Virus record (IMG/VR): IMGVR_UViG_3300042924_003416
Coordinates: 1 to 64,000 of that record
Reading direction: 5' to 3' (one strand)
Source of the DNA: a virus
DNA: 64,000 nucleotides
Made by a program: the position numbers and the translations under genes. How positions within the stretch are numbered: the first letter of the stretch is position 1; every line of letters begins with the position of its first letter. Shown here in pieces: positions 1,380 through 37,382 of this stretch. The notes beneath the pieces were generated by a model that worked only from the letters and a program-made list of their open reading frames with translations, ran no database searches and was not told where the DNA came from.

Positions 1380-1724
1380 ATGAAAAACCTAGTTAAAGCT
1401 CAAAAAGGTATAATGGTTAAAAAACCAAAAATAAAAATAACTGGACCAAAAGACAACCCATTTAAAAAAGATGCTCCATCAGATACTACTAAAATAAAGA
1501 AGTATCAAAAAGGTGGAACAATGAAAAAAATGAAAACTGGGGGAATGGTTAATTCCAATACTAAAGTTCAAGCAGATAATACTCCTGGTTCTAAAGGAGT
1601 TAAGTCTGGAATTAATCCAAAAGCTGCTGCTTCTAAAGTTGCTAGAGGTAAAGTAGGTGGTACATCTACTGCTCCAAAAGGAGCTTTTCCTAAAGCAAAA
1701 ATGAAAGGTTCTAAAAAGTCTTAA
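1380..1724 (+). CDS. Small Lys-rich protein with KAQKG/YQKGG/MKTGG motifs
   Basis: 114-aa ORF, very basic, tightly packed in the operon. Confidence 0.75.
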   Translation: MKNLVKAQKGIMVKKPKIKITGPKDNPFKKDAPSDTTKIKKYQKGGTMKKMKTGGMVNSNTKVQADNTPGSKGVKSGINPKAAASKVARGKVGGTSTAPKGAFPKAKMKGSKKS

Positions 1725-1726
1725 TA

Positions 1727-1879
1727 ATGACCAAAGAATTAATAAAAAGAAAAGACGGTAGTTATTCCCAGAGAGGACTCTGGGATAACATCCGTGCTAA
1801 TAAAGGTTCTGGAAAGAAACCTACAAGTCAAATGCTTAAACAGGAAAAGAAAATTAAAGCAACTACTAAAAAGAAATAG
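1727..1879 (+). CDS. Small basic protein, 50 aa (MTKELIKRKDGSYSQRGLWDNIRANKGSGKKPT...)
   Basis: Absent from the ORF track because it is under 60 aa. ATG lies 2 nt after the previous stop and its TAG lies 2 nt before the next ATG, filling the gap exactly. Confidence 0.75.
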   Translation: MTKELIKRKDGSYSQRGLWDNIRANKGSGKKPTSQMLKQEKKIKATTKKK

Positions 1880-1881
1880 TT

Positions 1882-2109
1882 ATGCCGATAAAAAAAACAA
1901 CAACAGTTAAAAAAACACCTACTAAGAAATCTTCAGTAGGTATTTCTATTTCTGCACCGGCTAAGGCAGAAATGAGAAAGTGGGAAATTGAATCTGCATT
2001 AAGTACTTTAAAGAGAGCAGATGAGATTAGAAAGGATGCAAAGATGATGAATGATGTTAAGAAATTAGCTCAGGAACAAATGAGTGTTTTAAAAACATTT
2101 AGTAAATAG
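1882..2109 (+). CDS. Small basic hypothetical protein, 75 aa
   Basis: Tightly coupled ORF with a K/T-rich N-terminus and a helical C-terminus (WEIESALSTLKRADEIRKD). Confidence 0.75.
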   Translation: MPIKKTTTVKKTPTKKSSVGISISAPAKAEMRKWEIESALSTLKRADEIRKDAKMMNDVKKLAQEQMSVLKTFSK

Positions 2110-2111
2110 TC

Positions 2112-2624
2112 ATGGCAAGAGTTACTGCTGATGGTGAAAAGCACAGGATTTATAAAAAAACCACCAAAAGAGGTGAGGGTAAACCTGGTAATATAATGGT
2201 CAACCATCCTACCAAAGATAAAGGACAGTGGGATACAATTGACTTAACCAAAAAGTCAGGAGCAAAAACTATTAAACAAGGTATTGCAGCAACTAGGAAG
2301 TGGCATAAAGAAAACCCTTATCCTAAACCTAAAATGGCTAATGGTGGATCTAGTCCAGCTTGGACAAGAAAAGAAGGTAAGAATCCAGAAGGTGGTCTTA
2401 ATGCAAAAGGTGTAGCAAGTTATAGAGCAGCTAATCCTGGTAGTAAACTTAAGACAGCAGTAACTACCAAACCTTCTAAACTTAAACCTGGAAGTGAAGC
2501 TGCAGGAAGACGTAAAAGTTTCTGTGCTAGGATGAGTGGAATGAAAAAAAAATTAACCAGCAGTAAAACGGCTAATGATCCTGATTCAAGGATCAATAAG
2601 TCATTAAGAAAATGGAATTGTTAA
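2112..2624 (+). CDS. Basic two-domain protein with C-terminal DUF6321-like domain
   Basis: AWTRKEGKNPEGGLNAKG...RRKSFCARM...SLRKWNC is a motif set recalled from aquatic phages (DUF6321-like, not verified). It is joined to the N-domain through KMANGG. Confidence 0.7.
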   Translation: MARVTADGEKHRIYKKTTKRGEGKPGNIMVNHPTKDKGQWDTIDLTKKSGAKTIKQGIAATRKWHKENPYPKPKMANGGSSPAWTRKEGKNPEGGLNAKGVASYRAANPGSKLKTAVTTKPSKLKPGSEAAGRRKSFCARMSGMKKKLTSSKTANDPDSRINKSLRKWNC

Positions 2625-2641
2625 TTTAAATTATATTTATT

Positions 2642-3178
2642 ATGAAAAAGTGTATGTCAGGATGTGGAGGTAAAATGCAAAAAGGTGGCAAAGTTTCTCC
2701 TGTTAAGAAAATGCAAAAAGGTGGTGTAACTAAAGGTCGTTGGGAATTTAATAAAGATGGTAGTCTTAAAACATTTGAATCTGAAAGAGAAAAGAATAAA
2801 GGAACGGGTCTTAAAACAAACGATAAATATAAAAAAATACAAGAGGATATTGAAAAAAGAACTGGAAAAAAATCTTCTTTAAAGTATCAAAAGGGTGGTA
2901 TTGCAAAACAAGAAATTGTTGGTATGCCTGGATACAATGCAAGAACTGATACCATGAAAAAGGGTGGTTCAGCTAAAAAGTTTGCAGCACTGGCACCTCC
3001 ATATGACAAAGCAACCTATGCAGATAAAATTGTTGGTGCAAAGAAAAAAGCTAAATTTGGTGCATCTGTTCCAGTACAACATTCTCCATCTCCAGGTAGA
3101 GTTAGATCTTCTTCTGGTGTAGGTACAGTACCTGTAGGGGCACGTAAACAAATGGGTGGTTCAACTAAAAGAAAATAG
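2642..3178 (+). CDS. Lys/Gly-rich protein with repeated (M/Y)QKGG motifs, 178 aa
   Basis: Contains KMQKGG twice, KYQKGG, TMKKGG, KAKFG and KQMGG. Confidence 0.75.
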   Translation: MKKCMSGCGGKMQKGGKVSPVKKMQKGGVTKGRWEFNKDGSLKTFESEREKNKGTGLKTNDKYKKIQEDIEKRTGKKSSLKYQKGGIAKQEIVGMPGYNARTDTMKKGGSAKKFAALAPPYDKATYADKIVGAKKKAKFGASVPVQHSPSPGRVRSSSGVGTVPVGARKQMGGSTKRK

Positions 3179-3180
3179 TC

Positions 3181-3327
3181 ATGGCAGAAAAGAAGGATAA
3201 GAAGTGGATACAAAAAGCAGTTAACCCTAAACATAAAGGTTTCTGTACTCCAATGTCTAAACCTACTTGTACTCCTAAAAGAGCAGCTCTTGCTAGAACA
3301 TTTAAAAAAATGGCTAAAAATAAATAA
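3181..3327 (+). CDS. Small basic protein, 48 aa (MAEKKDKKWIQKAVNPKHKGFCTP...RAALARTFKKM)
   Basis: Absent from the ORF track. It is coupled by TAGTCATG upstream and TAACATG downstream. Confidence 0.75.
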   Translation: MAEKKDKKWIQKAVNPKHKGFCTPMSKPTCTPKRAALARTFKKMAKNK

Positions 3328-3328
3328 C

Positions 3329-3847
3329 ATGAAAAAGACAAATAAAGTTCATCCAATAACTGCATTTAGAAAAGCTAATGAATCTAGACAAGCTAAAGTA
3401 AAAAAGTCTATTAAGAAAGCTCAGGATGGTATTCAAGTACCTTATGCTTATGCACCAGCTGCAAAAACTTCTTATTGGTTTGATAACCCAAACAAAAGAG
3501 CAGCATATGATGCAGGAACTAGAGAATCAGCAGCAAGGATAAGAGATAATAACAATGATGAGAATGCTGAAAGAGAATATAAAAGATTAGCAGATAGTTA
3601 TTCACCAAATGGTCCTAACTTAGATTTACCAAATGAGATGAAAGCTTTAAATCAAAAGTATCCATACTATGAAGGTTTTGAAGAAAAACCTTTTTTAGGA
3701 GGTAAAAACAATAAAGGTTGGGATCAAGTAAGAAAAGATAAACCAATTAAAGATAAAAGCTATAAACAAATGGATCCCAAATCTGAATATATGGGAGAAC
3801 CTGAATGGAAAAAGAAAGGTGGATCTGTAAGAAGAAAAAAGAAGTAA
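3329..3847 (+). CDS. Hypothetical protein, 172 aa, with central region bracketed by KKAQDG and KKKGG
   Basis: ATG 1 nt after the previous stop is preferred over the TTG at 3290. Confidence 0.7.
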   Translation: MKKTNKVHPITAFRKANESRQAKVKKSIKKAQDGIQVPYAYAPAAKTSYWFDNPNKRAAYDAGTRESAARIRDNNNDENAEREYKRLADSYSPNGPNLDLPNEMKALNQKYPYYEGFEEKPFLGGKNNKGWDQVRKDKPIKDKSYKQMDPKSEYMGEPEWKKKGGSVRRKKK

Positions 3848-3850
3848 GAC

Positions 3851-4549
3851 ATGCTTAATAGTACTATTACCATAAAGATGAAACAAAGGCTTAACAAGCT
3901 TGACAGTCAGGATTATGACAACATAACCTGTTGGCAAGTAGTTGAGTCTTTTAATAAAGCTCAGGTAGAGTGGTCAAGAAGACAGCTTCATGGTATTAAT
4001 GTTGTCAAAGAAGGTGATGAACAATCTACTCGTAGAAAAGATGACTTACAAAAATTATTAATAAGAGAACCTTTAACAGCTACAAAAAAAGATATTTATT
4101 ATGAAGGAAACATTCCGGGAGATTATCTTCAATGGAAAAGAGTAGATATCTATGCTAAGAAAGATTGTTGTGATCCAAGAAGAATGACAGTATATCTTGC
4201 AGAAGAAGGAAACCTTAATCAACTTCTAAGAGATAAAGCTAAACAACCTAACTTTGAATGGGCCGAAACTTTTGCAACACTTATTAATGATACAGTACAT
4301 TTGTATACAAATGGAGAGTTTGATATATCTGAAGCATTTCTTACCTATTATAGACAACCTAGAAAAATACAAGTAACAGGATGTTCAGATCCGTATACAG
4401 GAGCAACTTCTTCTACTGAAGTAGAATGTGAGTTTAAGGATGATATCATAGAATTAATAATAGACGAAGCAGTAAGTATTTTAGCTGGAGACATAGAGTC
4501 AGGAAACCAGTTCTCTAGAACACAAGAATCTGCAGAAAGAAGTAACTAA
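3851..4549 (+). CDS. Putative tail ring / head-tail connector protein (crAss gene-74-like)
   Basis: N-terminal NKLDSQ...FNKAQ...GDEQSTRRKDDL pattern and C-terminal YYRQP...CEF...IIDEAV pattern resemble crAss-like ring proteins; synteny agrees. Confidence 0.6.
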   Translation: MLNSTITIKMKQRLNKLDSQDYDNITCWQVVESFNKAQVEWSRRQLHGINVVKEGDEQSTRRKDDLQKLLIREPLTATKKDIYYEGNIPGDYLQWKRVDIYAKKDCCDPRRMTVYLAEEGNLNQLLRDKAKQPNFEWAETFATLINDTVHLYTNGEFDISEAFLTYYRQPRKIQVTGCSDPYTGATSSTEVECEFKDDIIELIIDEAVSILAGDIESGNQFSRTQESAERSN

Positions 4550-4551
4550 TT

Positions 4552-5166
4552 ATGGAAGCAAAACCAAGATCTTTAAAAAGACCAAATAGTAATGTTGTAG
4601 GATTAGAAAACCAACATATGGATATTTCTAAACCTAGTGAAGGAGCTACAACAGAAGTTCCAACAACTAAAACAAAGAATCCTTTACTAGATGATTCATG
4701 TGCTAGTTATCTTAACTATAGAATACAACAGGAGGAATATTCAGCAAGAATATATCTTTCAATGTCTATGTGGTTAAATAATGAAGGTTACATGGGTGCA
4801 GCTGCACTATGGAGAACATATTCTGATGAAGAAATGAAACATGCTGATATAGCACGAAAGTATATGTTATCATTTGGTATTCAACCAGCAACTCCTAGAT
4901 TAGATCAACCTAAACAAACATTTTCAGGTCTTCCTGAAATCATTAAACTTTCATTTGAACATGAGATAGAAGTTTCTAAACAAATTAAAGAAATGGCTAA
5001 TCATGCATTATCTGATGGAGATCATATGCTGTATGAACTATGTCTTGCTTATCTTAAAGAACAAGTTGAAGAACATGATAAGACTCAAACTTGGATGGAT
5101 AAATTAGAAGCATTTGGTACAGATAAGATTGCTCTTAGGTTACTTGATAACGAAATGGCAGGATAA
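4552..5166 (+). CDS. ftnA: Ferritin (non-heme, FtnA-like) with about 44-aa N-terminal extension
   Basis: Ferroxidase-centre motifs are intact: IQQEEYS..IY, DEEMKHA, EHEIEVS, KEQVEEH. Confidence 0.88.
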   Translation: MEAKPRSLKRPNSNVVGLENQHMDISKPSEGATTEVPTTKTKNPLLDDSCASYLNYRIQQEEYSARIYLSMSMWLNNEGYMGAAALWRTYSDEEMKHADIARKYMLSFGIQPATPRLDQPKQTFSGLPEIIKLSFEHEIEVSKQIKEMANHALSDGDHMLYELCLAYLKEQVEEHDKTQTWMDKLEAFGTDKIALRLLDNEMAG

Positions 5167-5174
5167 TTTTTTTA

Positions 5175-5221
5175 AAAAGTTTTGATATTTAAAAAACTTT
5201 TAGTATATTATAGTATATTTA
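5175..5221 (+). promoter_or_regulatory. Putative promoter (TTGATA-16 nt-TATATT; TTTAGTATATTATAGTATA) overlapped by AAAAGTTTT/AAAACTTTT inverted repeat
   Basis: The same GTATATTA core recurs in the intergenic regions before 9869, 13644 and 28849. Confidence 0.55.
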
Positions 5222-5244
5222 TTTATTAACAAAAACAAAAAACA

Positions 5245-6624
5245 ATGAGTTATTTTAATCATGCTTTTAGAAAAGTCCTTTTGGCAACAAATGGAGTTTC
5301 TAATTTAAATGGTGTTCAGTTAGGTACTCCAACTGCACCAGGGGCTACAACTTATAATCAGTTAGCTCCAGCTCAAATTACATTTATTAACCCCGATGAC
5401 TTTGAAGTTTCACCAACACCTAACACAGAACCATGCTGTGGTGTTATTGTTGCTTCAGGTTCAATTTATCCAAATGATAAAATTGGTAAATTTCACGGAG
5501 GATATTTAGAGTCTAACAAGACTAAAACTATCAAACCTCAGTATGTAAGTAAATACTGGTATGTTGAAGCTAATGCTCCTTCTAGATATGTAACTAATGT
5601 TGGATACACTCCTTGGAATGTAGCTAATCCACCATCAAGTTCTAATCCAGGAGAAACAGCAGGTACTTGTTGTAAAGAATTTTTATGTGGTGAAACTTAC
5701 TATTTACGTTTAGATGTTAAAGGTTCTCCAGCATTAAGATTATTAGATCACAATGCTTACTTAACTCTTGAAGCATATACTGGATGTTGTCCAGATTCTC
5801 CAGATGATCCGTTGATTGCACCGGTACCTGTAGATCCTAGAAAAGTATATTTTGCTTGGGCAAATCAAATTTTAAATTCTCCAATCATCAATCCTTTTGT
5901 ATATCCAATTGTAACATTTTATGATGACAATACAGGAGATTGGACTTATTACTATCCAGATACAGTTAATACAGCAACATTACCACCAGCTGGTCCTGGT
6001 GTAACTTATGCTAACTACTCTGATTGGACAGAAGAAGCTTATACAGTAGATATGTGTGCAGGATTTACTTTAACTGGTGCTTATGAAGAGACTAAGTTTG
6101 GTAACTGTACATTCCAAGTTTCTGATTTCTATGAATTAGAGCCAGTAAGAATCTATGCTTCTGAAACAGATTTAACAGGTGCTCCATGTGAGTTCCAAAC
6201 ACTTTGTGTAGGTGTAGAATGTTATGGTTTACAAGCTAATGGAGTTGGGGAAACTGTAGCAAGAGATTTCATCTTGTCAGAATCTTACAGACAAAGTTTC
6301 TTCCATAGTGATTTCAGGATTCGTGAGATTACTCAAGGTGATGCAATTGTAGGATGTAATGGATTTATTAATAGAAATCAACTTTATGATAGAATTTATT
6401 TACTACATAATGTTCCACGTTTCTATAACCCATCTGGTACATTTGACAATGATCAATACTTAGTAGAGATTATTGTTGATCAAGGTGATATCAATAGCCC
6501 AACTGGGGTTTGGAATGCAATTAATGATTGGTTAGATACATGTACTACATGTAGTGCAAAACCAACTGTTACTGGTAGCAATTGTGAAGCTCCAATTGTA
6601 CCTTTCCCTGGTGACGAGGATTAA
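5245..6624 (+). CDS. Putative virion structural protein (auxiliary capsid-like), 459 aa
   Basis: Has its own promoter and terminator, suggesting high expression. Position matches the crAss-like auxiliary capsid gene. Cys/Pro-rich. Confidence 0.5.
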   Translation: MSYFNHAFRKVLLATNGVSNLNGVQLGTPTAPGATTYNQLAPAQITFINPDDFEVSPTPNTEPCCGVIVASGSIYPNDKIGKFHGGYLESNKTKTIKPQYVSKYWYVEANAPSRYVTNVGYTPWNVANPPSSSNPGETAGTCCKEFLCGETYYLRLDVKGSPALRLLDHNAYLTLEAYTGCCPDSPDDPLIAPVPVDPRKVYFAWANQILNSPIINPFVYPIVTFYDDNTGDWTYYYPDTVNTATLPPAGPGVTYANYSDWTEEAYTVDMCAGFTLTGAYEETKFGNCTFQVSDFYELEPVRIYASETDLTGAPCEFQTLCVGVECYGLQANGVGETVARDFILSESYRQSFFHSDFRIREITQGDAIVGCNGFINRNQLYDRIYLLHNVPRFYNPSGTFDNDQYLVEIIVDQGDINSPTGVWNAINDWLDTCTTCSAKPTVTGSNCEAPIVPFPGDED

Positions 6625-6645
6625 TTAAAGTTTTAAAAACTCATA

Positions 6646-6684
6646 AAAGGAGAGTGAGAGTATAACCTCTTCCTCTCCTTTTTT
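6646..6684 (+). terminator. Rho-independent terminator
   Basis: AAAAGGAGAG.GAGAG-loop-CTCT.CCTCTCCTTTTTT. Confidence 0.8.
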
Positions 6685-6696
6685 ATTATAATACAT

Positions 6697-7239
6697 ATGG
6701 CAAATCATGTTTTAAGTTTAGAAATTCCTACTGTATCAAATCCTTGTGTACTTAAGATATTTGATACCAGTGTATATTCACCATTAGTAGGTTTGCATAA
6801 TCCAAGATTGGAAGTAGTTATTCCTGGGTTTACATATACTGCAGAATTAGCATTTACACCTGATTCTACTCCTACACTTACAGCATGTGATTTAGGATTA
6901 CAAACAGAAAACTGTGGTACATCTTATGTTAATTTGCCAGATGGTATTTATGGTATTAAATATATTGTAGATCCAGAGTGTCAAGTATATGTAAGTTATA
7001 ATCATCTTAGAATAACTTGTGCTCTAAATAGATATGAAAAAATACTTTGTACTTTGAGTATCTCAGATTGTGATCCTCCAGCAAAGATTAAGCAGAAGCT
7101 GAGAGATCTTCATTTAATTAAAATGTATTTAGAAGCAGCAAAAGCAAAAGTAGAAACATGTCATGAAAACCAAGAAGGTATGACATTATTTAATTATGCT
7201 GTCAAACTTTTAAATAAATTTGAATGTAGAAATTGTTAA
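6697..7239 (+). CDS. Putative tail-fibre hub protein, 180 aa
   Basis: Beta-rich N-terminal part (LPDGIYGIKY) plus a helical C-terminal part with Cys. Position matches crAss-like hub genes. Confidence 0.45.
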   Translation: MANHVLSLEIPTVSNPCVLKIFDTSVYSPLVGLHNPRLEVVIPGFTYTAELAFTPDSTPTLTACDLGLQTENCGTSYVNLPDGIYGIKYIVDPECQVYVSYNHLRITCALNRYEKILCTLSISDCDPPAKIKQKLRDLHLIKMYLEAAKAKVETCHENQEGMTLFNYAVKLLNKFECRNC

Positions 7240-7258
7240 CTTTTAAAAACCAACAAAA

Positions 7259-7462
7259 ATGAGTACTTGTCCTAATTGTAATAAAAAATTATCCTGTGGA
7301 TGTCAGATGAGAACAGCATCTAATGGTAGAAAAGTATGTACTAATTGCTCCTCTTCCTATGAAAGAAGTTTAAAACCTCAAAAAGTAGAACCAGCAAAAC
7401 AAGTTGATGCTAATGTTTGGGGGAAGGATAGATATAAAAACTTAAGTAAATTTATCAAATAA
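7259..7462 (+). CDS. Small Cys-rich protein (CPNC..SCGC..CTNC), possibly metal-binding or disulfide-bonded
   Basis: 67-aa ORF with six Cys in CxxC/CxC motifs. Confidence 0.7.
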   Translation: MSTCPNCNKKLSCGCQMRTASNGRKVCTNCSSSYERSLKPQKVEPAKQVDANVWGKDRYKNLSKFIK

Positions 7463-7463
7463 A

Positions 7464-9842: not shown

Positions 9843-9858
9843 TTTGTATATTATAATA
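9824..9858 (+). promoter_or_regulatory. Putative promoter (TTGCAA-17 nt-TATATT; TTTGTATATTATAATA)
   Basis: Shared GTATATTA motif upstream of a gene start. Confidence 0.5.
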
Positions 9859-9868
9859 AGATAAAAAT

Positions 9869-12103: not shown

Positions 12104-12145
12104 TAAATAATAATTGTATATATGTTTAATTTAAAATAAAAAAAA

Positions 12146-13531: not shown

Positions 13532-13537
13532 AAAGAA

Positions 13538-13562
13538 GTTACAGGTTGTTGGTTTCTGTGAC
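13538..13562 (+). other. RNA hairpin with UUGUUGGUU loop in 3' UTR
   Basis: GTTACAG(G)/(T)CTGTGAC stem with G-U pairs, directly upstream of the terminator. Confidence 0.45.
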
Positions 13563-13572
13563 AACAAGGCAT

Positions 13573-13603
13573 AACCCTCACACTTGTGGGGGTTTTGTTT
13601 TTT
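13573..13603 (+). terminator. Rho-independent terminator
   Basis: AACCCTCAC-ACTT-GTGGGGGTT followed by TTGTTTTTT. Confidence 0.8.
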
Positions 13604-13611
13604 AATTACAT

Positions 13612-13643
13612 TTGTTAATGTCATTTATTTTTAGTATATTAAT
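13612..13643 (+). promoter_or_regulatory. Putative promoter (TTGTTA-17 nt-TATATT) abutting the ATG
   Basis: TTTAGTATATTAAT motif lies immediately after a terminator. Confidence 0.55.
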
Positions 13644-15930: not shown

Positions 15931-15932
15931 TT

Positions 15933-24343: not shown

Positions 24344-24345
24344 TC

Positions 24346-28791: not shown

Positions 28792-28840
28792 ACTTTATAA
28801 GTTTATTGATTAAATTAAAATTTAGTATATTAGTATATAA
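28787..28840 (+). promoter_or_regulatory. Perfect palindrome AATAAACTT-TAT-AAGTTTATT followed by TTTAGTATATTAGTATA promoter-like motif
   Basis: 9-bp inverted repeat at 28787-28807; shared GTATATTA motif at 28825-28832. Confidence 0.5.
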
Positions 28841-28848
28841 CACATCTT

Positions 28849-31800
28849 ATGAAAAAATCAGTAAGAATAAGAAAAGCTCTTCCAGGTGAAAAACCTGGTT
28901 ACTATAATAAGACTGCAAAGTTTTTACAAAAAGCTCAAATGGGTATGCAAGTTGGTTCTCCAAGTATGGATCCTCAAAGATTAAATAAGGTATATGAGAA
29001 TGTATATATATCATTAAAACAGTCTACTCCTCCTGATGTAGTTTATAATGAACTTGTTACAGAATATGCTTTAGATCAGGATACTTCATTAAGTATTCTT
29101 AGAGCTGCTTTAGGTCAGTTATCTCAAGAAGGTTATTTTGATGAATCTGAATTAGAGGGTGAGAGTACATCTCAAAGTGAAGAAGAAACTCAAGAAGAAG
29201 ATACTTCTGCCCAAGAAGAACAACAAGCATCAGATGATGCAGAACAACAACAACTTGCTGAGTCATCTGAAGGTTATTATGATGATGAAGAAGCATTAAA
29301 CAATGACACATCCCATCTTGAAGATGAACAGTATGAGCAACAAGAAGCATTTAGATATGGTGGGTACTGGCAAGATGGTGGAGAAAGTGAAGAAGTATAT
29401 GATGAATCAGAGTATCAAGATGAAGAAAATTATTCTGATGAATCTGATACACGTGAAAATGTAGTTGATCAATATAATTATCCTGGACAATCAACAATGG
29501 AGAAACCTTTCTCTATAGAAGATTTAATGGCTATTACTCCAGGGATGCAAGGACAAGAAGCATTTCCAGATATATCAGCTTATTTAGGTGATTATCAACC
29601 TGTAGCAGATTCATATCAACCAGAGAATTATTTACCTCAAGCACAGTATGGTACTATTATTAAAGCTGCTAAAGCTGCTGCAGATGCACTTAAAGTAGAC
29701 CCTCCTATCTTAAGACAACCGTTTACTAACTTAAGTACTTTACGTAAGTACATACCTATTTCTACTCTTACAGGAGAAGCAGTAACTAAATTACCATTAA
29801 TTGGATCTAAACTTGCACCTAAATTAGCAACTACTTTTACTCAAAATAGAGATGAGTTGTTTAAAGTAATGCAGGGTCAGTCCCCTAAGACAGGTATATT
29901 TAGTCAAACTGGTAGTTATGCTGGTGGAGCTGATGGTAGTTTATCTGCTGATAGATTATTGTTGTATCAAGATGATGTATTTAATATTATTGATCAAATA
30001 GAAAATGGAGGACGTTCTGCTTTTCAATTTATGGATATTGATCCTGTTGCAAAAAATGATGGATTAATAAGTGGATTGTATCCATTAGATTCTAAAATTG
30101 TAAGTGGTGTTGATGATAATGGTTTTAAATTCTTTGAATTAAATAAAACATTTACTCCAGGTGAAAAATTACCATTTGGTACTTTACCTTCTAAAGCTAA
30201 AGAAGTTACATTTAAAAATAGATTCTATTATAAGACTGATGAGGCTGGTCAAGTACAAGTATTTGATTCTTTAGGTAATCCTTTATCTCAAGGTGCTCAA
30301 ACTAAATTTGAAGTTGCAAGACCTTTTGGAACAACTGTTTCAAGAACACTTACTGATCCAATACTAAGAAATTCTAATACACCATTTCCTAGTTTTAGAA
30401 CAGGATACGAAGGTGGAAGACTTACTGAAACTATGGGTGAAAAACCTATGACTTTTGCAGACATGGGTGTAAGAGGTAAGATTGGTAGAGGATTAGAAAC
30501 ATTTGGTTTTACTGGTTTAAATCTTCCTTTTAGAACAGGAGCTGATGCTATTCAAAAAGTTGACTATCCAGTATTTGGATATACTAATAAAGCTTTAGGA
30601 CCTAATGTAATAGATCCTGCTACTGAAGGATCTTATGCAAAAGATATTGCAAATGCAATGAACTATAAATATAGAGTTGGCCGTAATACATTACTTGGTC
30701 TTGGTGCTCTAGGTGCATTAGGTTATACAGGATATAATGCTTATAATAAATGTCAATGTGAAGATCCTCTTGCTCCAAACTATCAAATGAAAGATAAGTA
30801 TGATAACTGTCCTTGTGGTACTGATGTAGGTAGTAGGAGAACTTTAGATCCAACAGCTAATCCTTTTACTGAACAAGTTGATCCAAGATCTTTAACTATG
30901 CCTGATAGTATGCAATTTCTTATTCAAAAAGGAATTTATCCAAGTGCAGAAAATTATTACAGGTATCAAGATAGTAATGTTGTAAATCCAAATATGGAGA
31001 ACAGTATTCCTGCAGATGATTTTGCATATGGTGGTGCATTACCAAGAGCACAAAAAGGTCGTATTATTAAAGGTGTTGCAAAAACAATGAAAACTTTAAA
31101 AGCACAACCTACACCAAAAGGAGTAACCATACCAAAAAATATGTCTGACATTCCAATACCTAAATATAATGTAAAAGGTATGGATGCAAGAAAAGCATTT
31201 GAAGATGATTTAAGACTTGATCAAGATTTTATAGATTTTCAAAATAATGATCAATTTTTACAGTACAGTCCAGGTTTTCAAACTAACCAACAACGCTTAG
31301 ATTCTGAACCTCTTCGTGATTTCTTTAAATATGTAACTGGATATTCTGATCCTCTTGAAATAAAACAATTTTTAAATACCCCTGGTATAACAAAATATAA
31401 TAAATTTGGTGTCCCTTTTGCAACAAGAGATTTTAAAATGATGCAAACACCTTTTGAAGATCCTTTTAATCTTTTAGATGATGGTTTTAATATACCACCT
31501 TATCAAAAAGGAGGTATTTCAAAAAATCAGTTTATTAAAAAGTTTACTTCAATGTATCAAGAAGGTGGGGAAAAAGATCCAAAAGATCCTTCACTAGGTA
31601 AAGGAAAAAGGTTTGATACTCTTACTAATGATGTAGAAGCTAGAAAAGATATATTTAAAAGTAAACTTAAAAATAATTCTAATGTAGCTCTTACAGAAGA
31701 GATATATAAAAATGCTCAGAGTAATCCTCAGATTCTAAGCATGTTAATGCAAGATGGTCAAAAAGAAAATCTTGCAGAAAATGATAATATGCAAACAGCA

Positions 31801-33900
31801 CAATATGGTGGTGTTAAAGAAGATAGTATACCAAATTGGTATAGAGGTTATCAATCTATGATGACTCCTGCACAATATAAAAAACTGTACAAACAGTTAC
31901 GTAGAATGATACCTAAAGGTGTAGATATTTCAAAAGCTAATATTGCATCTAACTTTTTTGATAGGGGAACAACTTTACCACCATATGGTCATGTTATGAC
32001 ATATCCTCAATATGATGATATGATGAATAGAATGACTATGCCAATGATGATAGATCCAAATACTTTTGGATTTAGAGGTACTAGTATTCCTTCACAACTT
32101 CAAGCAGAAGATGCAGTAAATAAAAATAATCAAAAAGGTACACAATTTTTACCTGAACTATCTCCTGACTTTATTGATTCACCATTAACACCTGAATTAA
32201 AAGGTCAAGATTTTTTACAGTTTTATGAAGACTATCCAACTCAACTTCAACAAAAAGATTTTTTTCCATTTGTTGATTATCCTGCAGTTGCTGAACATGG
32301 TGGGTTTGTAGATACTGATGCTGAAGAACCTTTATATAAGTTTATATATGGTGGTGATGAACCAGAATATTATGAACAGTATGGTTTACCAGAAGCACAG
32401 TACGGTGCTGATGTTTCTGGTATTTATGACTATATTGATGGTCTTCAGAAGAATGCTAAGAATAATGATCCTGATCCTAATCCTAAAGAAAATGAAGATA
32501 AGAAAGATGATCAAGATATAATTGAATGTGGACCAGGAACAGTATGGAGTAAAACATATCAATCTTGTATTCCTAGATCTAAAGTAACATATAATCAAAG
32601 ACAAGTAAGAAGAAGTCCTGGATTCTTTAATACTATGTTACCTTGGAATGCACCATTTGGTTATGCCGGTTCATGGACAAAACAGATGTCTTTACCATAT
32701 TATTTAGGAAGTAAAGATCCTTATAAAGGTCAATTAACAGGAGCTCCTGTTGCTAGATACGTAACTAAAAAAGGTATTTTAGGTAGACCTAAAAAATGGA
32801 TAGACATTTACAATACTGGCAGCGGTTCTGGTAGCATAAATCCTATAGAGTTAGAAAAACTGATGGAACAAAACAGAAGAGGTTCCAATAGAAACATGAA
32901 TAAAAATCAGTTTAATAATCCTTCAGAAGATAGAGTAAGTGGTAGAGATCAGTTAGAAAGTGATCTTAAAAAGAGAATGGGTTATTCAGATGAAGAGTGG
33001 GAAAGCACTAGTGAAAAAGATAAGAGAAGAGAGATAAGAGCTGAGAGATATAACCAAGGTAAAGGTTTAAGATATAAGACTAATGAAGCTTATGAAAATC
33101 TTAAAGATTCTGCATTAGGTAATACTGCTAAATTTTATGGAAACATAGGTAAAAAAGTAAAAAACTTTCTTACTAGAAAAGATTATGGTGGTGCTGGTGG
33201 ATGGGATCCTTTTGCATTAGGTAGTGGATTAAGTACTGGTGTTGGTCAAAACATGTCTGCATTTGCACCTTATTCACAACAACAACAATTTGAGAATAGT
33301 TTGTTTGGTACTAAAGGTCCTTCTGCAGCTCCTAAACCACAACAGAATCCTCTTGCTAATGTTAATTTTGGTACGGGCTCTTATGCTGAGACTGCAAATA
33401 CTGGACATACATTAGGTGCACAAGGTCAAGAAATTATTCCACAAAAAGAACCAGAAGCACCTGAAAATGAATATGTAGGTGTTGAAAACAAAAGAAAAGA
33501 TATGCAAAATGTAGATCCTGAAGCAGGAGTAAATGTTACTAATGCAGCTATCAGAGGTGGTTTAGGAGTACTAAGTAGAATGCAGAATGCAGGAAGAGAA
33601 AGAAATTTCTTATTAGATACTGTTGATCCAATGAACTTATATGCATCTGCAAATGAAACTGACAGAGGTGACTGGCAAGACTTTGGTTCTAAATCTGGTA
33701 TGTTAAGATATGATCAAGAAGGACAAGACAGAAGTAGTAGAGCTACCTATGGTAATTATGCTAATGCAGCATATGGTGGATACATGCAAGAGGGTGGATT
33801 CTATGAAGAACCATACTTTGAAGAAGACGAAGAAGTATATATGACTCCAGATGAATTAGAACAATTTTTACAAGCCGGAGGACAAGTTGAATATTTATAA
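28849..33900 (+). CDS. Modular putative cargo protein, 1683 aa
   Basis: About 16 xxxGG/AQxG motifs, an acidic tract, and one TM-like helix followed by a Cys module. Confidence 0.7.
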   Translation: MKKSVRIRKALPGEKPGYYNKTAKFLQKAQMGMQVGSPSMDPQRLNKVYENVYISLKQSTPPDVVYNELVTEYALDQDTSLSILRAALGQLSQEGYFDESELEGESTSQSEEETQEEDTSAQEEQQASDDAEQQQLAESSEGYYDDEEALNNDTSHLEDEQYEQQEAFRYGGYWQDGGESEEVYDESEYQDEENYSDESDTRENVVDQYNYPGQSTMEKPFSIEDLMAITPGMQGQEAFPDISAYLGDYQPVADSYQPENYLPQAQYGTIIKAAKAAADALKVDPPILRQPFTNLSTLRKYIPISTLTGEAVTKLPLIGSKLAPKLATTFTQNRDELFKVMQGQSPKTGIFSQTGSYAGGADGSLSADRLLLYQDDVFNIIDQIENGGRSAFQFMDIDPVAKNDGLISGLYPLDSKIVSGVDDNGFKFFELNKTFTPGEKLPFGTLPSKAKEVTFKNRFYYKTDEAGQVQVFDSLGNPLSQGAQTKFEVARPFGTTVSRTLTDPILRNSNTPFPSFRTGYEGGRLTETMGEKPMTFADMGVRGKIGRGLETFGFTGLNLPFRTGADAIQKVDYPVFGYTNKALGPNVIDPATEGSYAKDIANAMNYKYRVGRNTLLGLGALGALGYTGYNAYNKCQCEDPLAPNYQMKDKYDNCPCGTDVGSRRTLDPTANPFTEQVDPRSLTMPDSMQFLIQKGIYPSAENYYRYQDSNVVNPNMENSIPADDFAYGGALPRAQKGRIIKGVAKTMKTLKAQPTPKGVTIPKNMSDIPIPKYNVKGMDARKAFEDDLRLDQDFIDFQNNDQFLQYSPGFQTNQQRLDSEPLRDFFKYVTGYSDPLEIKQFLNTPGITKYNKFGVPFATRDFKMMQTPFEDPFNLLDDGFNIPPYQKGGISKNQFIKKFTSMYQEGGEKDPKDPSLGKGKRFDTLTNDVEARKDIFKSKLKNNSNVALTEEIYKNAQSNPQILSMLMQDGQKENLAENDNMQTAQYGGVKEDSIPNWYRGYQSMMTPAQYKKLYKQLRRMIPKGVDISKANIASNFFDRGTTLPPYGHVMTYPQYDDMMNRMTMPMMIDPNTFGFRGTSIPSQLQAEDAVNKNNQKGTQFLPELSPDFIDSPLTPELKGQDFLQFYEDYPTQLQQKDFFPFVDYPAVAEHGGFVDTDAEEPLYKFIYGGDEPEYYEQYGLPEAQYGADVSGIYDYIDGLQKNAKNNDPDPNPKENEDKKDDQDIIECGPGTVWSKTYQSCIPRSKVTYNQRQVRRSPGFFNTMLPWNAPFGYAGSWTKQMSLPYYLGSKDPYKGQLTGAPVARYVTKKGILGRPKKWIDIYNTGSGSGSINPIELEKLMEQNRRGSNRNMNKNQFNNPSEDRVSGRDQLESDLKKRMGYSDEEWESTSEKDKRREIRAERYNQGKGLRYKTNEAYENLKDSALGNTAKFYGNIGKKVKNFLTRKDYGGAGGWDPFALGSGLSTGVGQNMSAFAPYSQQQQFENSLFGTKGPSAAPKPQQNPLANVNFGTGSYAETANTGHTLGAQGQEIIPQKEPEAPENEYVGVENKRKDMQNVDPEAGVNVTNAAIRGGLGVLSRMQNAGRERNFLLDTVDPMNLYASANETDRGDWQDFGSKSGMLRYDQEGQDRSSRATYGNYANAAYGGYMQEGGFYEEPYFEEDEEVYMTPDELEQFLQAGGQVEYL

Positions 33901-33908
33901 CAATACCA

Positions 33909-36900
33909 ATGATAAAAGTTAGAATTAAAAAAGTACCTAAAGCAAGAACTGGATACCAAGTTCAAGGAGCATTAGTTAATGATGTACCTGCAATGGGAGG
34001 TATGGACTACAATGCTTATATAGGTAAAGAAAAACTTAAGGAAAGTAAGTACATCACCGCTGTCCCTAGAGAAGAAGCAAATCTTGAAGCAGAGGGAGGT
34101 GAAACAGTATATGGAGACATCAATGGTGATGGAATGCCAGAACATAAAATCATCAAAGGACCAAGACATGCTCAAGGTGGAGTTCCTCTAAGTCTTCCTG
34201 AAGATACTTTTATCTTTAGTGATACCAGAGCTATGAGGATAAAAGATCCTGAGATACTTACTATGTTTGGTAAAGGTGGTGCAAATAAATCTTTTACACC
34301 TGCAGAACTTGCTAAACAATATGATGTACAGAAATATAGAAAACTTTTAGAAGATCCTGATACAGATGCAATAGAAAGAAAGACTGCTGAGTTGATGATC
34401 AAAAAGTATGTTATAAAACTTGGTTGTCTTGCTCTTACACAAGAGTCTATGAAAGGATTCCCTCAAGGAATTCCTGCCGTAGCAAAACCTTGTATGGAAG
34501 CTAAAGGTCTTACAGAACAAGATATATTACCAAGTAAAGAAATACAAGGTCTAAATGAACAGTTGAAGCAACAAATGCAACAACAAGAAGGAGGAGATGA
34601 AAATCAAGTTCAAGAGGCTGTTGACATGAATGAAGGAAATCCTGTTGCTGAACCTACACAACAAGAACCTCAAGGTGAAATGCCTCCATCTCCAGAAGAA
34701 ATGATGATGTATGGTGGTCATAGAAGATTAAGAAGAGGTCAAATGGGAATGGAACAAGTTCCACAAGAAATGATGGAGCCTCAACAAGAACAAGGAGGAG
34801 GAGATGAGATGATGGAAATTGTTCAAGAAGTTCAATCTGCTTTAGAAAGAGGTGCTGACCCTTCTGAAGTTGTTATGAATTTATTAGAGAATAATGTTCC
34901 TCCACAAGCAATAGTAGAAATCTTTGCTCAATTGGGTGCAGATCCACAACAAGCTGCTGGTCTTGTAGAACAAGTAATAAGTCAAGCTCAAGGTGGTGGT
35001 CAAGAACAAATGATGCAAGAACAACCTATGTCAGAAGAAGAAGCAATGATGATGCAACAACAACAGATGCAACAACAAGCTCCTCCAATGGCAATGTATG
35101 GGATGACTATGGGTGGTTATGATATGCCTTTTTTTGACATACCTCAAGCTGAATATGGAATGTCTATGGGTTCTGGTATGTCTCAAAACTATCAGGGAAG
35201 ACCTAAAAGAATTCCTGGATCAGGTCCTATGTTTCCATTAACAAGAGCAGACAATGGTATTGTGGTTGATGGTAGTAATATGACAGAAGAACAACTACAA
35301 AGAGCAATTTGGAATGAACAACAAAAAGCACTTAAAGATTGGAAAGATAAAAATCCCGGTAAAGATCCAAAAACATCTGGTTATAAAGAACCACAAATTA
35401 ATGTAAAACGTAAAGATGCATCAGGTAAAGTTATAACTTCAAAGTTAAAATCATCAGGATTTATTATTCCTGAAGGTAAAGATATTAGTGATTTAAAAGG
35501 TTTTCCTGATACACCAAGAGGGAGAACTGTTGCTGCACAGTATATGTTAATTGAAGATAACTTAAAAAATCCTATAGTTCAAGCTGAGATTATTAAAAAT
35601 ACTAAAGAAGCAATTGAAAATCCTGATGCTTGGACAGGTAAAGGTGGTAAAAGAAATGCAAATAACACATGGTCTAAAAAATATGGATCTTTACCAGATG
35701 ACGAAGAAATTATAAAACAAGCATTAAATCATCAAAAAAGAAATTTAATGTTTGAAGCTAATGAAGTAGATCCTCAATTATTTACAGATGTTGGTGATGC
35801 TTTAGATAAAGCAAGTACAGTTGTATCTGAAAAATATATAAATCCTAAAACAGGAAAACCCTATACTTTAAAAGAAGCCCAATCTGAATTAAAAAGATTA
35901 ACTGATAAGGGATACACAAGTATAGCAAAGATGTCAGAGAAACTTAAAGTTCCTTTAGATCCTTTAGGAAAAGATCGAGTTTTACAACAAGCTACAATGC
36001 ATTCATATGCAAAGTCTTATCAAAATTTTCAAAAAGGTGACTATGATTCTAATCCAGATGCTAAATATGCTATGGATAATTTTTTAGGTAATGTAAGTTT
36101 AGTACATGCCGGAGCAAATGATGAAACCTCAATGGGTGCTTTATATGGTACAATTGGTAATAAAATATCACCTCTTGATGATAAATATAATTATGCTAAT
36201 AATAACTGGTATGATTTTGCAAATAGTTCAAAAGGAGATAGTAGATTTACAACTTATGGTGATACAAGTGCTGGTCATAGATATATGGTTGGTAAAAGAA
36301 ATTATGAATTTGAAGATTTACCACCCGAAGTAGATCCAAATTGTCAATGTGCAGATCCTAATAAACCTAACTATGGTCAGTATAAAGATGCTAATGGAAA
36401 TTGTAGTTGTACTCCTCCAGATGTTCCAAAAGATAAACCAAAGAATTGCCCATGTAGAAAGTCTGATGGAACAGAAATAAACATGACTCCTGATAAAGAT
36501 GGTAACTGTCCTCCTTGTACAGAAGAACAAACTATTGAAACTCCTGCACCTCCTGCTGAATGGTGGTTACAAGATACTATTAAAACTACTGGTGCATTTG
36601 GAGACTTAATGGGTATTAAAAAATATATGCCGTGGGCACCAGGAGTTGAACTTGGAACACCAAGACCAACTTTTATGGATCCTACAAGAGAACTTGCTGC
36701 TAATGCAGAACAAGCAAACATCCAAACCCAAGGTATGGCACAGTTTGCAGGACCTCAAGCATTGTCTGCAAGATCATCTGGTATACAAGGTCAAGCTGCT
36801 AAGAATGCTGCTGATGTACTTGCTAAGTATAATAATGCTAATGTTAATGTTGCAAATCAATTTGAAATGAAAGCAAATGACATTAGAAATCAAGAGAGTA

Positions 36901-37382
36901 TGTTAAAACAAGCAACTGCTCAAAGAGTCTATGATCAGAATACAGTTGCTAACCAACAGTTTGATAATGCTAAGTTGGCAATGAGAAATCAGTTAAGAAA
37001 CTACTATACTAATGCAATTACTAACAGATGGAAAACAGATGCTCTTAATCAAATGTTCCCTAACTATGCTGTATCTGCTGGAGTAGGTGGAAGAATGGAT
37101 TATAGACCTTCAGAAAGAACTCCTAACCCAACACAGACTACAGGTAAAACTAGAGAAGAGTGGTTCATGTGGTGTAAAAACAATGGAGATCCTAATCCTT
37201 CTGCATGTGCTCAAAGAATGATGGATAATAAAGGAAGTTCAAGTAGTAGCAGTGATGGGGCAGATGCAAACATGATTAAAACTATGTATGGTCAATATGG
37301 TGGGGCTATGTATCCAGATGATGATTTTTATGAAGATGGAGGATATGTACATGTTAATTCATGGCTACCATTTATAATGTAA
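33909..37382 (+). CDS. Putative cargo protein, 1157 aa
   Basis: EAEGGE...GPRHAQGGVP motif of a kind seen in Bacteroidetes phage virion proteins, a Q/M/E-rich tract, and a C-terminal A/Q/N-rich coiled coil. Confidence 0.7.
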   Translation: MIKVRIKKVPKARTGYQVQGALVNDVPAMGGMDYNAYIGKEKLKESKYITAVPREEANLEAEGGETVYGDINGDGMPEHKIIKGPRHAQGGVPLSLPEDTFIFSDTRAMRIKDPEILTMFGKGGANKSFTPAELAKQYDVQKYRKLLEDPDTDAIERKTAELMIKKYVIKLGCLALTQESMKGFPQGIPAVAKPCMEAKGLTEQDILPSKEIQGLNEQLKQQMQQQEGGDENQVQEAVDMNEGNPVAEPTQQEPQGEMPPSPEEMMMYGGHRRLRRGQMGMEQVPQEMMEPQQEQGGGDEMMEIVQEVQSALERGADPSEVVMNLLENNVPPQAIVEIFAQLGADPQQAAGLVEQVISQAQGGGQEQMMQEQPMSEEEAMMMQQQQMQQQAPPMAMYGMTMGGYDMPFFDIPQAEYGMSMGSGMSQNYQGRPKRIPGSGPMFPLTRADNGIVVDGSNMTEEQLQRAIWNEQQKALKDWKDKNPGKDPKTSGYKEPQINVKRKDASGKVITSKLKSSGFIIPEGKDISDLKGFPDTPRGRTVAAQYMLIEDNLKNPIVQAEIIKNTKEAIENPDAWTGKGGKRNANNTWSKKYGSLPDDEEIIKQALNHQKRNLMFEANEVDPQLFTDVGDALDKASTVVSEKYINPKTGKPYTLKEAQSELKRLTDKGYTSIAKMSEKLKVPLDPLGKDRVLQQATMHSYAKSYQNFQKGDYDSNPDAKYAMDNFLGNVSLVHAGANDETSMGALYGTIGNKISPLDDKYNYANNNWYDFANSSKGDSRFTTYGDTSAGHRYMVGKRNYEFEDLPPEVDPNCQCADPNKPNYGQYKDANGNCSCTPPDVPKDKPKNCPCRKSDGTEINMTPDKDGNCPPCTEEQTIETPAPPAEWWLQDTIKTTGAFGDLMGIKKYMPWAPGVELGTPRPTFMDPTRELAANAEQANIQTQGMAQFAGPQALSARSSGIQGQAAKNAADVLAKYNNANVNVANQFEMKANDIRNQESMLKQATAQRVYDQNTVANQQFDNAKLAMRNQLRNYYTNAITNRWKTDALNQMFPNYAVSAGVGGRMDYRPSERTPNPTQTTGKTREEWFMWCKNNGDPNPSACAQRMMDNKGSSSSSSDGADANMIKTMYGQYGGAMYPDDDFYEDGGYVHVNSWLPFIM

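Follow-up and report, generated by a model that had tools for sequence, protein, structure and literature searches.

A Gly-Gly peptide at the module seams of putative cargo proteins and small basic proteins in a crassvirus clade

Why does one short peptide ending in Gly-Gly recur throughout eight proteins of a virus? The question is raised by the IMG/VR virus record IMGVR_UViG_3300042924_003416, whose positions 1 to 64,000 (the window) open a viral contig of 85.8 kb, ca. 31% G+C, in which plus-strand genes extend up to 65603 and are followed by a minus-strand replication module. An earlier note on this DNA had described the peptide, in the two forms hydrophobic-x-x-G-G and K-A-Q-x-G, in four small basic proteins and in a block of four giant ones, and had suggested that these are either polyproteins cut by a maturation protease or proteins docked inside the capsid through the motif. 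The analysis described here confirmed that the motif is real and that it is a property of a whole clade, and located it at the seams of exchangeable modules. That the seams are left uncut, as joints or handles, is tentatively preferred to their being protease sites.

The enrichment of the motif in the window was assessed against 200 within-protein shuffles. With a broad definition (hydrophobic-x-x-GG or A[QK]xG), 53 sites were counted in the eight proteins, which agrees with the "about 50 copies" first noticed, ca. 15-20 being expected by chance. The strict form [FMYW]xxGG was found 7 times in the four small proteins (0.67 expected) and 21 times in the four giants (5.1 expected), LPxA[QK]xG was found in the giants only (7 copies against 0.01 expected), and A[QK]xG occurred there 15 times against 4.6, the observed value being reached by 0 of 200 shuffles in each of these four tests. 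The two forms, [F/M/Y/W]-x-x-G-G and L-P-x-A-Q-x-G, are thus 4 to 700 times commoner than in the shuffles in the four block genes and in three of the four small basic proteins (1380-3178), so that the earlier statement of eight motif proteins holds for seven of them, the fourth small protein (3290-3847) being without a strict copy. No enrichment was found in the tail genes at 3851-21488 (2 copies, 3.2 expected), in the genes at 37439-65603 (3 copies, 3.3 expected) or in 28 minus-strand genes (2 copies, 2.5 expected), and the background level reported for the tail proteins and for the genes from 37439 onwards was therefore borne out, as was the prediction that composition-matched shuffles would not account for the motif in the two gene groups. 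The motif-bearing genes are the following, the four of the block totalling 5273 amino acids.

1380-1724, plus strand: small basic protein 1, 114 amino acids, with an N-terminal KAQKG, YQKGG at 1503-1517 and MKTGG at 1530-1544.
2112-2624, plus strand: small basic protein 2, 170 amino acids, with an N-terminal part, MANGG at 2334-2348 and a DUF6321 cassette at 2376-2615 (Pfam E 3.7e-20).
2642-3178, plus strand: small basic protein 3, 178 amino acids, with two copies of MQKGG, one each of YQKGG and MKKGG, and the C-terminus ...QMGG-STKRK.
3290-3847, plus strand: small basic protein 4, 185 amino acids from a TTG start, with only KKAQDG and a C-terminal KKKGG-SVRRKKK.
21485-24343, plus strand: cargo-block protein 1, 952 amino acids, with a SET-like cassette at 21575-21871 between MKKGG and MQKGG, and with FQFGG and YSEGG.
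23285-23392, plus strand: fused composite junction within cargo-block protein 1, a 25-residue module E-L-T-x-x-E-I-x-x-Y-x-x-GG-Y-I-I-E-D-I followed by S-I-P-S-L-P-K-A-Q-L-G.
24346-28791, plus strand: cargo-block protein 2, 1481 amino acids, with the N-terminus MAKYRITSIP-x-x-LPQAQDGG, the pairs YKNGG-S-LPKAQLG and FKEGG-D-LPKAKMG, and a C-terminal junction module at 28720-28788.
28849-33900, plus strand: cargo-block protein 3, 1683 amino acids, with the N-terminus ...FLQKAQMG, seven strict copies, three copies of LPxAQxG and a C-terminal module at 33832-33897.
33909-37382, plus strand: cargo-block protein 4, 1157 amino acids, kept in all 80 relatives, with a folded domain at residues 45-211 (34041-34541).

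The tandem pairs that had been pointed out, including FAYGG-A-LPRAQKG, are all present. The two copies at 23375-23398 and 26734-26757 both encode PKAQLGKI with 3 base differences, all in third codon positions, and the Gly codons of the motif show the same GGT/GGA usage as the genes overall; the view that conservation acts at the protein level is upheld by both observations.

Is the motif peculiar to this contig? Eighty related loci were fetched by alignment of the last block protein and a further 80 loci were taken around a conserved 339-residue protein, 153 of the 239 block proteins being retained after dereplication. The motif density in three block slots was 3.7, 4.7 and 3.5 per 1000 amino acids, against 0.20 (75 relatives) and 0.16 in the next two genes. 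In the slot of the small basic proteins, 259 distinct proteins contained 8.2 copies of [FMYW]xxGG per 1000 amino acids and 23% Lys plus Arg, and the scaffold-like, 339-residue and ring proteins of the same loci contained 0-0.2. A single profile, derived from 1617 distinct GG contexts, shows Leu at -6, Pro at -5, Phe, Met, Tyr or Ala at -3, Gln or Lys at -2 and Tyr or Lys at -1, with little past the GG save Tyr, and this pattern was not seen in the GG contexts of the downstream genes. Since one data-derived profile covers both forms, the two motifs of the earlier note are one, L-P-x-phi-[Q/K]-x-G-G, where phi is hydrophobic. The preference is specific: [FMYW]QxG is followed by a second Gly in 177 of 241 cases in the block against 1 of 28 downstream, and [ILV]QxG in only 15 of 96, aliphatic residues at -3 behaving differently. 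Not every copy marks a seam, however, because the major capsid protein (MCP; at 8294-9913 of the related locus L093, for example) has LMIKGG and WGQGG at fixed places in each of its 63 distinct orthologues, and these two motif-like peptides are presumably structural and lie inside the fold. No description of the motif or of crassvirus cargo processing was found in the literature covered by the search, which included main-text passages on the Bacteroides phage PhicrAss001, and the pattern is apparently undescribed so far.

The position of the motif within the proteins is at the seams between modules, where cassettes are exchanged and where genes are fused or split. In the variable first block gene, compared among six genomes, homology stops exactly at the GG (YFQFGG or KYSEGG, each followed by unrelated sequence), and cargo-block protein 1, whose relatives range from 837 to 1877 amino acids with variable content, loses homology to them at FQFGG, PKAQLG and YSEGG. 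When BLAST matches among the dereplicated block proteins were scored for ends within -1 to +3 of the core Gly, 647 of 4263 distinct right-hand ends fell there, against 154 ± 13 by random placement, and left-hand ends piled up at -4 to -2. Among sharp junctions, with identity of at least 60% dropping to at most 20%, 165 of 377 right ends (44%) were at the motif, 13 ± 4 being expected, with the other 56% away from it, and 54 of 131 left ends were within ±5 residues of it (10 ± 3 expected). One upstream module, e.g. ...FDPN-x-x-YFQDGG, precedes many unrelated cassettes.

Gains and losses exactly at the motif, the check that had been proposed for orthologues, could also be traced. The 114-residue gene at 1380-1724 corresponds to a 344-residue gene of the related locus L089 minus ca. 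230 residues, cut exactly between two copies of YQKGG which share 14 nucleotides, and the gene adjoining the longer form is 100% identical to its counterpart in the window. The DUF6321 cassette, in 13 cases from relatives, is a stand-alone gene starting with MAK-SPAW in nine, fused after KM[AQ][NK]GG-S in two and probably mis-called in two. Moreover, 85 of 142 complete block proteins have the motif within their last 30 residues (30.5 expected) and 60 of 142 within their first 50 (44.5 expected). With these results, the description of the genes as mosaics of exchangeable cassettes, with the motif at the boundaries, can be maintained.

Some seams are composite. Of 633 strong contexts, 33 belong to a junction module of ca. 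25 residues, I-E-x-E-L-T-D-D-E-I-E-E-Y-R-K-G-G-Y-I-V-E-D-I, conserved at up to 4.5 bits per position. Many block proteins end naturally with this module, and in others it occurs at 28 distinct interior sites, where [S/V]-[I/V]-P-[S/E]-L-x-x-A-Q-x-G(G) and then a new cassette come after it. The window contains it both fused, at 23285-23392, and split between genes as ...GGYIVEEE(stop) / MAKYRITSIP..LPQAQDGG, and similar. An exhaustive search with the 44-residue fused copy and its flanks (23273-23404) returned 363 representatives of clusters at 50% identity with E<=0.001, 82 of them with E<=1e-10, and in most of the proteins 2-4 stretches were matched. The best 150 proteins held 243 junction modules, 72 C-terminal and 171 interior, and the interior ones were followed by the P-[S/E]-L..A/Q..G element in 85 cases and by another GG in 47. 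The natural C-termini extend 5-7 conserved residues beyond the GG, which in AlphaFold2 (AF2) models lies between a helix and a strand with a predicted local distance difference test score (pLDDT) of ca. 87-90. In 35 orthologous but divergent C-terminal tails of cargo-block protein 3, a single GG accounts for all the invariant columns, and runs such as Y-G-G-Y-M-Q-x-G-G-F are conserved in the tails of block proteins.

What sort of genes are these? Their surroundings comprise the following features.

3-272, plus strand: C-terminus of the MCP (partial open reading frame, ORF); the 539-residue orthologue in L093 matches Pfam Crass_capsid (E 3e-30).
348-1367, plus strand: conserved 339-residue protein, 78-100% identical across the 80 loci returned, with 0 motif copies per 1000 amino acids in 60 distinct orthologues.
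14222-14884, plus strand: tail ring 2 (Pfam CrAss_Ring_2, E 1.7e-22), motif at background.
14884-15930, plus strand: tail ring 1 (Pfam CrAss_Ring_1, E 6e-10), motif at background.
15933-21488, plus strand: muzzle protein (Pfam crAss_MUZ, E 1.2e-29), motif at background.
37439-40636, plus strand: 1065-residue protein, the first gene past the block, with 0 copies of [MYFW]xxGG, marking a sharp end of the motif zone.

A weak Pfam match to ring 3/4 was also found at 3851-4549. In relatives, the head genes are ordered as TerL-like, portal-like, a 427-residue acidic, helical, scaffold-like protein (without Pfam matches), MCP and the highly conserved protein of ca. 340 residues. The latter, of 339 residues in the window, has no Pfam or PHROGs match, and its matches in the ESM Atlas are only its own unnamed viral clusters; it is a candidate for a motif partner or enzyme. 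The block starts at 21485, straight after the muzzle gene, and in PhicrAss001 the muzzle gene gp44 is followed by the cargo proteins gp45 and gp46 and then by RNA-polymerase-associated giants, according to the available text of its structural description (PMC10172136). By this match in position, the four giant genes at 21485-37382 occupy the cargo slot, the place directly after the muzzle gene being the mark of Crassvirales cargo proteins. The small basic genes at 1380-3847 lie between the 339-residue protein and a ring protein, a slot for which no PhicrAss001 counterpart was found among gp33-gp36. In relatives, small basic motif proteins (L093 11027-11695 and 12379-13152) show glycine-zipper-like hydrophobic stretches resembling membrane helices, which recall the predicted transmembrane helix of PhicrAss001 gp45. 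From gene position, all eight motif proteins would be virion proteins. In database searches, tblastn of two clade proteins against the GenBank phage collection gave no match, so that no cultured member of the clade is represented there, four queries against PDB sequences gave nothing or chance-level matches only, and PHROGs returned only "virion structural protein" or unknown families.

Other genes of the contig can be described briefly. A ferritin-like protein at 4552-5166 on the plus strand (Pfam Ferritin, E 7e-25; Rubrerythrin, E 7e-5), between the ring protein and a 459-residue unknown, is extended by 50 residues at its N-terminus and lacks the GG motif. Encapsulins with the HK97 fold classically take up ferritin-like cargo, and by analogy packaging of this protein in the virion is conceivable. 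Three proteins of the tail-fibre region (792, 744 and 461 amino acids; 7464-13531, plus strand) are rich in Cys at their termini, where C-x-x-C-like runs occur, and match hardly any family; a zinc-ribbon-like ORF of 67 residues lies at 7259-7462. A 2444-residue giant at contig positions 58269-65603 (plus strand), running past the window, carries LysM near its C-terminus (Pfam E 1.2e-5). Beyond the window, the minus strand encodes a SegE-type GIY-YIG homing endonuclease amid the replication genes (contig 76868-77293) and a spore-photoproduct-lyase-like radical SAM protein truncated by the contig end (84981-85754).

As regards the content of the modules, the SET-like cassette of cargo-block protein 1 is matched by Pfam with E 5.6e-5 and 23.9 bits (cut-off 22.4), and the other cassettes of the window mostly have no family match. 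Among 40 diverse variable-slot proteins of relatives, Pfam found SET (5), SLT (4), Phage_lysozyme2 (4), Phage_lysozyme (3), VanY (2) and one each of Amidase_2, ART-PolyVal and GNAT, in addition to a peptidoglycan-binding domain. Since these cassettes are effector-like, the idea of a plug-and-play payload injected with the genome, put forward in the earlier note, is a fair reading. At least two unrelated effector or enzymatic domains per late-region polypeptide, the pattern by which polyvalent proteins are recognised, are found when the SET-like domain of the window is considered together with the domains of the relatives.

If the modules were released by proteolysis, a protease would be expected. 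Six-frame searches with Pfam hidden Markov models (HMMs; E<=1) were run on five relatives, 82-100% complete (two of them 96% and 100%) and one of them with terminal repeats. C39 (PF03412) was found in none of the five, a control search being positive in 7 of 14 reference genomes; neither C5 (PF00770) nor C48/Ulp1 (PF02902) of clan CE was found in any, though very divergent versions could escape HMMs; and the prohead-type S78, S77 and ClpP families (PF04586, PF03420, PF00574) were likewise in 0 of 5, the phiKZ-type family not being among those searched for. Pfam scans of the contig, covering the plus-strand proteins, the head genes of a relative and 20 minus-strand proteins (nine minus-strand ORFs below ca. 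116 residues and one 71-residue plus-strand ORF were left out), revealed no protease except a DUF2201 metallopeptidase-VWA protein in the replication module, which is the only recognisable peptidase on the contig. Its gene adjoins that of a MoxR-like AAA ATPase beyond the window (contig 73350-75757, minus strand; L002 3350-5757), and a comparable region of PhicrAss001 also encodes a VWA protein, gp52. No metallopeptidase was detected by Pfam in the four block proteins or in the 40 proteins of relatives. The search for Ulp1/C48, C39 and prohead proteases that had been recommended was therefore negative, and release by a maturation protease, as first proposed, is not supported so far, given also that some GG pairs lie inside a confidently folded mini-module.

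Structure models added detail to the two last block proteins. Residues 1-42 of cargo-block protein 4 (33909-34034; LPKARTGYQVQG...PAMGG) are nearly invariant over 45 divergent orthologues, the alignment having a mean column identity of 67%, and are modelled by AF2 with pLDDT <50 at residues 12-42. Being nearly invariant yet modelled as disordered, this segment suggests a partner and may well act as a short linear element for binding it. The model of residues 1-235 reached a pLDDT of 77, and a hidden protease in this N-terminal domain was discarded, as Foldseek against the PDB returned nothing at E<=0.001 and the best fold is that of a crassvirus cargo domain: among 48,161 chains, the best match was 7qog_M residues 425-552, the portal-bound domain of PhicrAss001 gp45 (Z 5.3, root-mean-square deviation 5.5, 98 aligned residues, 24% identity), where Z below 8 can arise by chance. 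Sequence comparison of the domain with gp45 (hhalign probability 0.3%, local alignment z 0.8) did not confirm the fold match, but the modelled likeness fits the synteny. For cargo-block protein 3, residues 484-1683 gave a mean pLDDT of 49, with folded islands and 62% of the model at low confidence, and no Foldseek matches; 11 of its 13 motif copies fall in segments of pLDDT <50, where ca. 8 would be expected given that proportion. Cargo-block protein 1 has an alignment depth of 0-2 past residue 300. A complex prediction of the C-terminal tail of cargo-block protein 3 with the invariant N-terminus of cargo-block protein 4 scored 0.18 against a mark of 0.32, which speaks neither for nor against binding.

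How, then, can the motif be understood? In the explanation that is cautiously preferred, it would be what is conserved in a set of seam peptides, L-P-x-[F/M/Y/A]-[Q/K]-x-G-G, each of which closes an exchangeable module, and the carriers of the seams (the four cargo proteins after the muzzle gene and the small lysine-rich proteins after the capsid gene) would be loaded into the particle. There the seams would stay uncut as exposed, flexible joints or handles, so that adjacent modules could fold and unfold singly and pass through the portal and tail one after another. They would also present the same short peptide to a single virion partner by which the proteins are loaded or positioned. Since all modules close with this peptide, in-frame recombination at the seams would swap, delete or split modules harmlessly, and the outcome would be a plug-and-play payload that includes peptidoglycan hydrolases, SET, ADP-ribosyltransferase and domains of that sort. 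The virion location, the uncut state of the seams and the existence of a partner that reads them are what we infer from these data. Uncut seams are favoured by the searches that found none of six protease families in the five relatives, by the GG inside the folded junction unit, by natural C-termini that run on past the GG, and by PhicrAss001 gp45, which keeps three intact GG dipeptides in its resolved segment 425-552 and was traced as one chain from capsid to tail, processing not being mentioned in the available text (PMC10172136).

Several observations nonetheless tell against this explanation. The canonical-looking copies of gp45 (residues 17, 260 and 559) lie outside the resolved density, so that they are not visibly docked there. 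A plain hinge would not need an aromatic residue or Met at -3, nor Gln or Lys at -2. The information in the motif is almost wholly N-terminal to the GG; the motif goes with the upstream module, 165 sharp right ends lying at it against ca. 34 sharp left ends just before it; Pro is about half as frequent right after the GG as in the background (2.8%, 17 of 600, against 5.9%); and stand-alone genes start right after the GG position, all of which is as expected of a protease site. Furthermore, the protease search covered what Pfam HMMs can recognise, and several conserved proteins are of unknown fold.

These last four features of the motif point to the explanation that comes next, possible though doubtful, in which the seams would be cleavage sites. 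An unrecognised phage or host protease would cut after phi-[Q/K]-x-G(-G), either while the head matures or following ejection. Cargo polyproteins would be diced into effectors and the basic proteins into short basic peptides, as the adenovirus protease does with core proteins. Besides the specificity on the P side of the GG, the closing of the upstream module, the depletion of Pro and the stand-alone genes beginning where a cut would fall, it would account for the propeptide-like position of the motif near both termini, for the tandem sites, for the interchange of fused and split forms and for a motif common to two unrelated protein classes; polyvalent phage proteins have, moreover, been predicted to be processed (PMC5512222, in the text available). 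On the other hand, not only were C39, C48, C5, S78, S77 and ClpP not found in the five relatives, but the 40 diverse cargo proteins have no peptidase cassette except cell-wall enzymes, the sole recognisable peptidase of the contig stands amid replication genes, the conserved domain that opens cargo-block protein 4 does not have a protease fold, cleavage of the junction module at its GG would divide a unit that is both conserved and folded, and no processing is reported for PhicrAss001 in the text examined. It is thus only a tentative proposal that the crassviruses of this clade, and perhaps PhicrAss001 at gp45 residues 21, 264 and 563, mature internal proteins by an unrecognised Gly-Gly-specific protease. 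If true, the giant cargo genes would be polyproteins diced in the particle into dozens of effectors, and the lysine-rich proteins would give rise to short DNA-condensing peptides, an adenovirus-like core maturation and a new maturation protease system in tailed phages.

Two further explanations are unlikely, and to a similar extent. The seams could be neutral or permissive linkers, in which a Gly-Gly joint merely survives shuffling and the motif provides microhomology, with no reader protein. The deletion in the gene at 1380-1724 did use a 14-nucleotide repeat encoding YQKGG, the modelled third block protein is mostly of low confidence and linker-like, and 56% of the sharp breakpoints are not at the motif; nevertheless, neutrality is difficult to reconcile with the strong preferences at -3 and -2 and the exclusion of Ile, Leu and Val, with codons that vary synonymously, with the retention of the motif in 600 distinct contexts of unrelated flanks, or with a GG that is the sole invariant pair in 35 divergent tails. 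Alternatively, the motif could be a multivalent "sticker", aromatic residues or Met next to Gly in disordered segments making the cargo and the basic proteins cohere with each other and with DNA, so that a protein body would form in the capsid and tail lumen and the motif itself would be the packaging signal. Aromatics are in fact enriched at -4, -3, -1 and +2 around the GG and in the conserved runs of the tails, many copies per protein lie in predicted disorder, the lysine-rich partners bear the same motif, and ca. 5.5 megadaltons (MDa) of cargo lie in unresolved zones of PhicrAss001 (PMC10172136, in the part available). Cohesion of this kind would require neither the seam location nor the C-terminal bias, however, and the LPxAQxG form has no aromatic residue. 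Finally, a DNA-level recombination signal as the main cause was discarded, since the codons vary synonymously, though a 14-nucleotide repeat mediated one deletion.

Few known phages are as abundant as the crassviruses. The way in which they load ca. 5 MDa of protein cargo and drive it through the tail is an open question, as stated in the available text of PMC10172136. In this context, a single short peptide at the seams of both cargo and small basic proteins is a concrete handle on cargo loading, and it predicts where cuts or contacts would lie in mass-spectrometry and cryo-EM data of PhicrAss001. It also explains the evolution of the payload by cassette exchange, and would allow the limits of modules to be annotated in hundreds of dark-matter proteins, as many as 363 clusters at 50% identity being matched by the junction module by itself.

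Among known systems, the adenovirus protease (adenain, C5) cuts (M/I/L)-X-G-G/X and pS273R of African swine fever virus (ASFV) cuts GG/X. The likeness lies in a hydrophobic residue that precedes Gly-Gly by a constant number of positions, in its recurrence among several proteins of the virion interior, some of them very basic, in tandem sites and in information on the P side, but here the hydrophobic residue is one position further out (phi-x-x-G-G) and is aromatic, Met or Ala rather than Met, Ile or Leu; a clan CE protease was found in none of the five relatives, and cleavage, known there, would be hypothetical here. The double-glycine leaders of C39 peptidases have the consensus L-S-x-x-E-L-x-x-I-x-G-G, and in the junction module, E-L-T-x-x-E-I-x-x-Y-x-x-G-G, Leu, Glu, Ile and an aromatic residue are spaced before the GG in the same heptad-like way. 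It differs in one extra residue before the GG, in the conserved strand after it, in being C-terminal (72 of 243) or interior (171 of 243) and not an N-terminal leader, and in that PF03412 was found in none of the five relatives. Encapsulin cargo-loading peptides are short and Gly-containing, stand at the cargo end after a flexible linker and dock inside an HK97-fold shell; a Gly-containing seam peptide at a protein end could dock cargo similarly, although there is one peptide per cargo there and the motif stands at every module seam here.

The internal proteins of T4 bear a capsid-targeting sequence. In giant phages, a prohead protease processes head and ejection proteins (SPN3US gp245; PMC5694885 and PMC10052503, in the text available). 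Both would resemble the present case in that many head-packaged, ejected proteins carry one short signal read by one head component; the giant phages, as far as the available text goes, differ in having an identified protease and other sites, S77, S78 and ClpP being in 0 of 5 relatives here. Polyvalent proteins are large multidomain phage proteins of the late region in which effector domains are strung together for delivery with the DNA, a zincin-like MPTase having been proposed as the device for their processing (PMC5512222, in the text available). The block proteins of relatives share with them lysozyme, SET-like, GNAT and ART-PolyVal domains, and differ from them in that the MPTase domain, frequent and not obligatory there, was not found in the block proteins, and in the conserved seam peptide, which does not appear in the available text of PMC5512222, where neither "glycine" nor "linker" nor "crAss" occurs.

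The closest comparison is that with PhicrAss001. Its gp45 contains 12.6% Gly and 21 GG, including FDTGG at 17. Its two resolved segments, the barrel-bound helix (214-245) and the portal-bound domain (425-552), are each followed shortly by a copy, FAEGG (260) and FAYGG (559) respectively; in gp46 the motif is at background, and the available text of PMC10172136 does not mention it. There are two cargo genes in PhicrAss001, of 1376 amino acids in total, against four here with 5273, and the block studied here has a far higher copy number of the motif, enzyme cassettes and the additional small basic motif-bearing proteins, its similarity to gp45 not being detectable in sequence. Nevertheless, both sets of genes stand in the same position, straight after the muzzle gene, and among structures the conserved domain of cargo-block protein 4 comes closest to the portal-bound domain of gp45, with a Z of 5.3, which can arise by chance.

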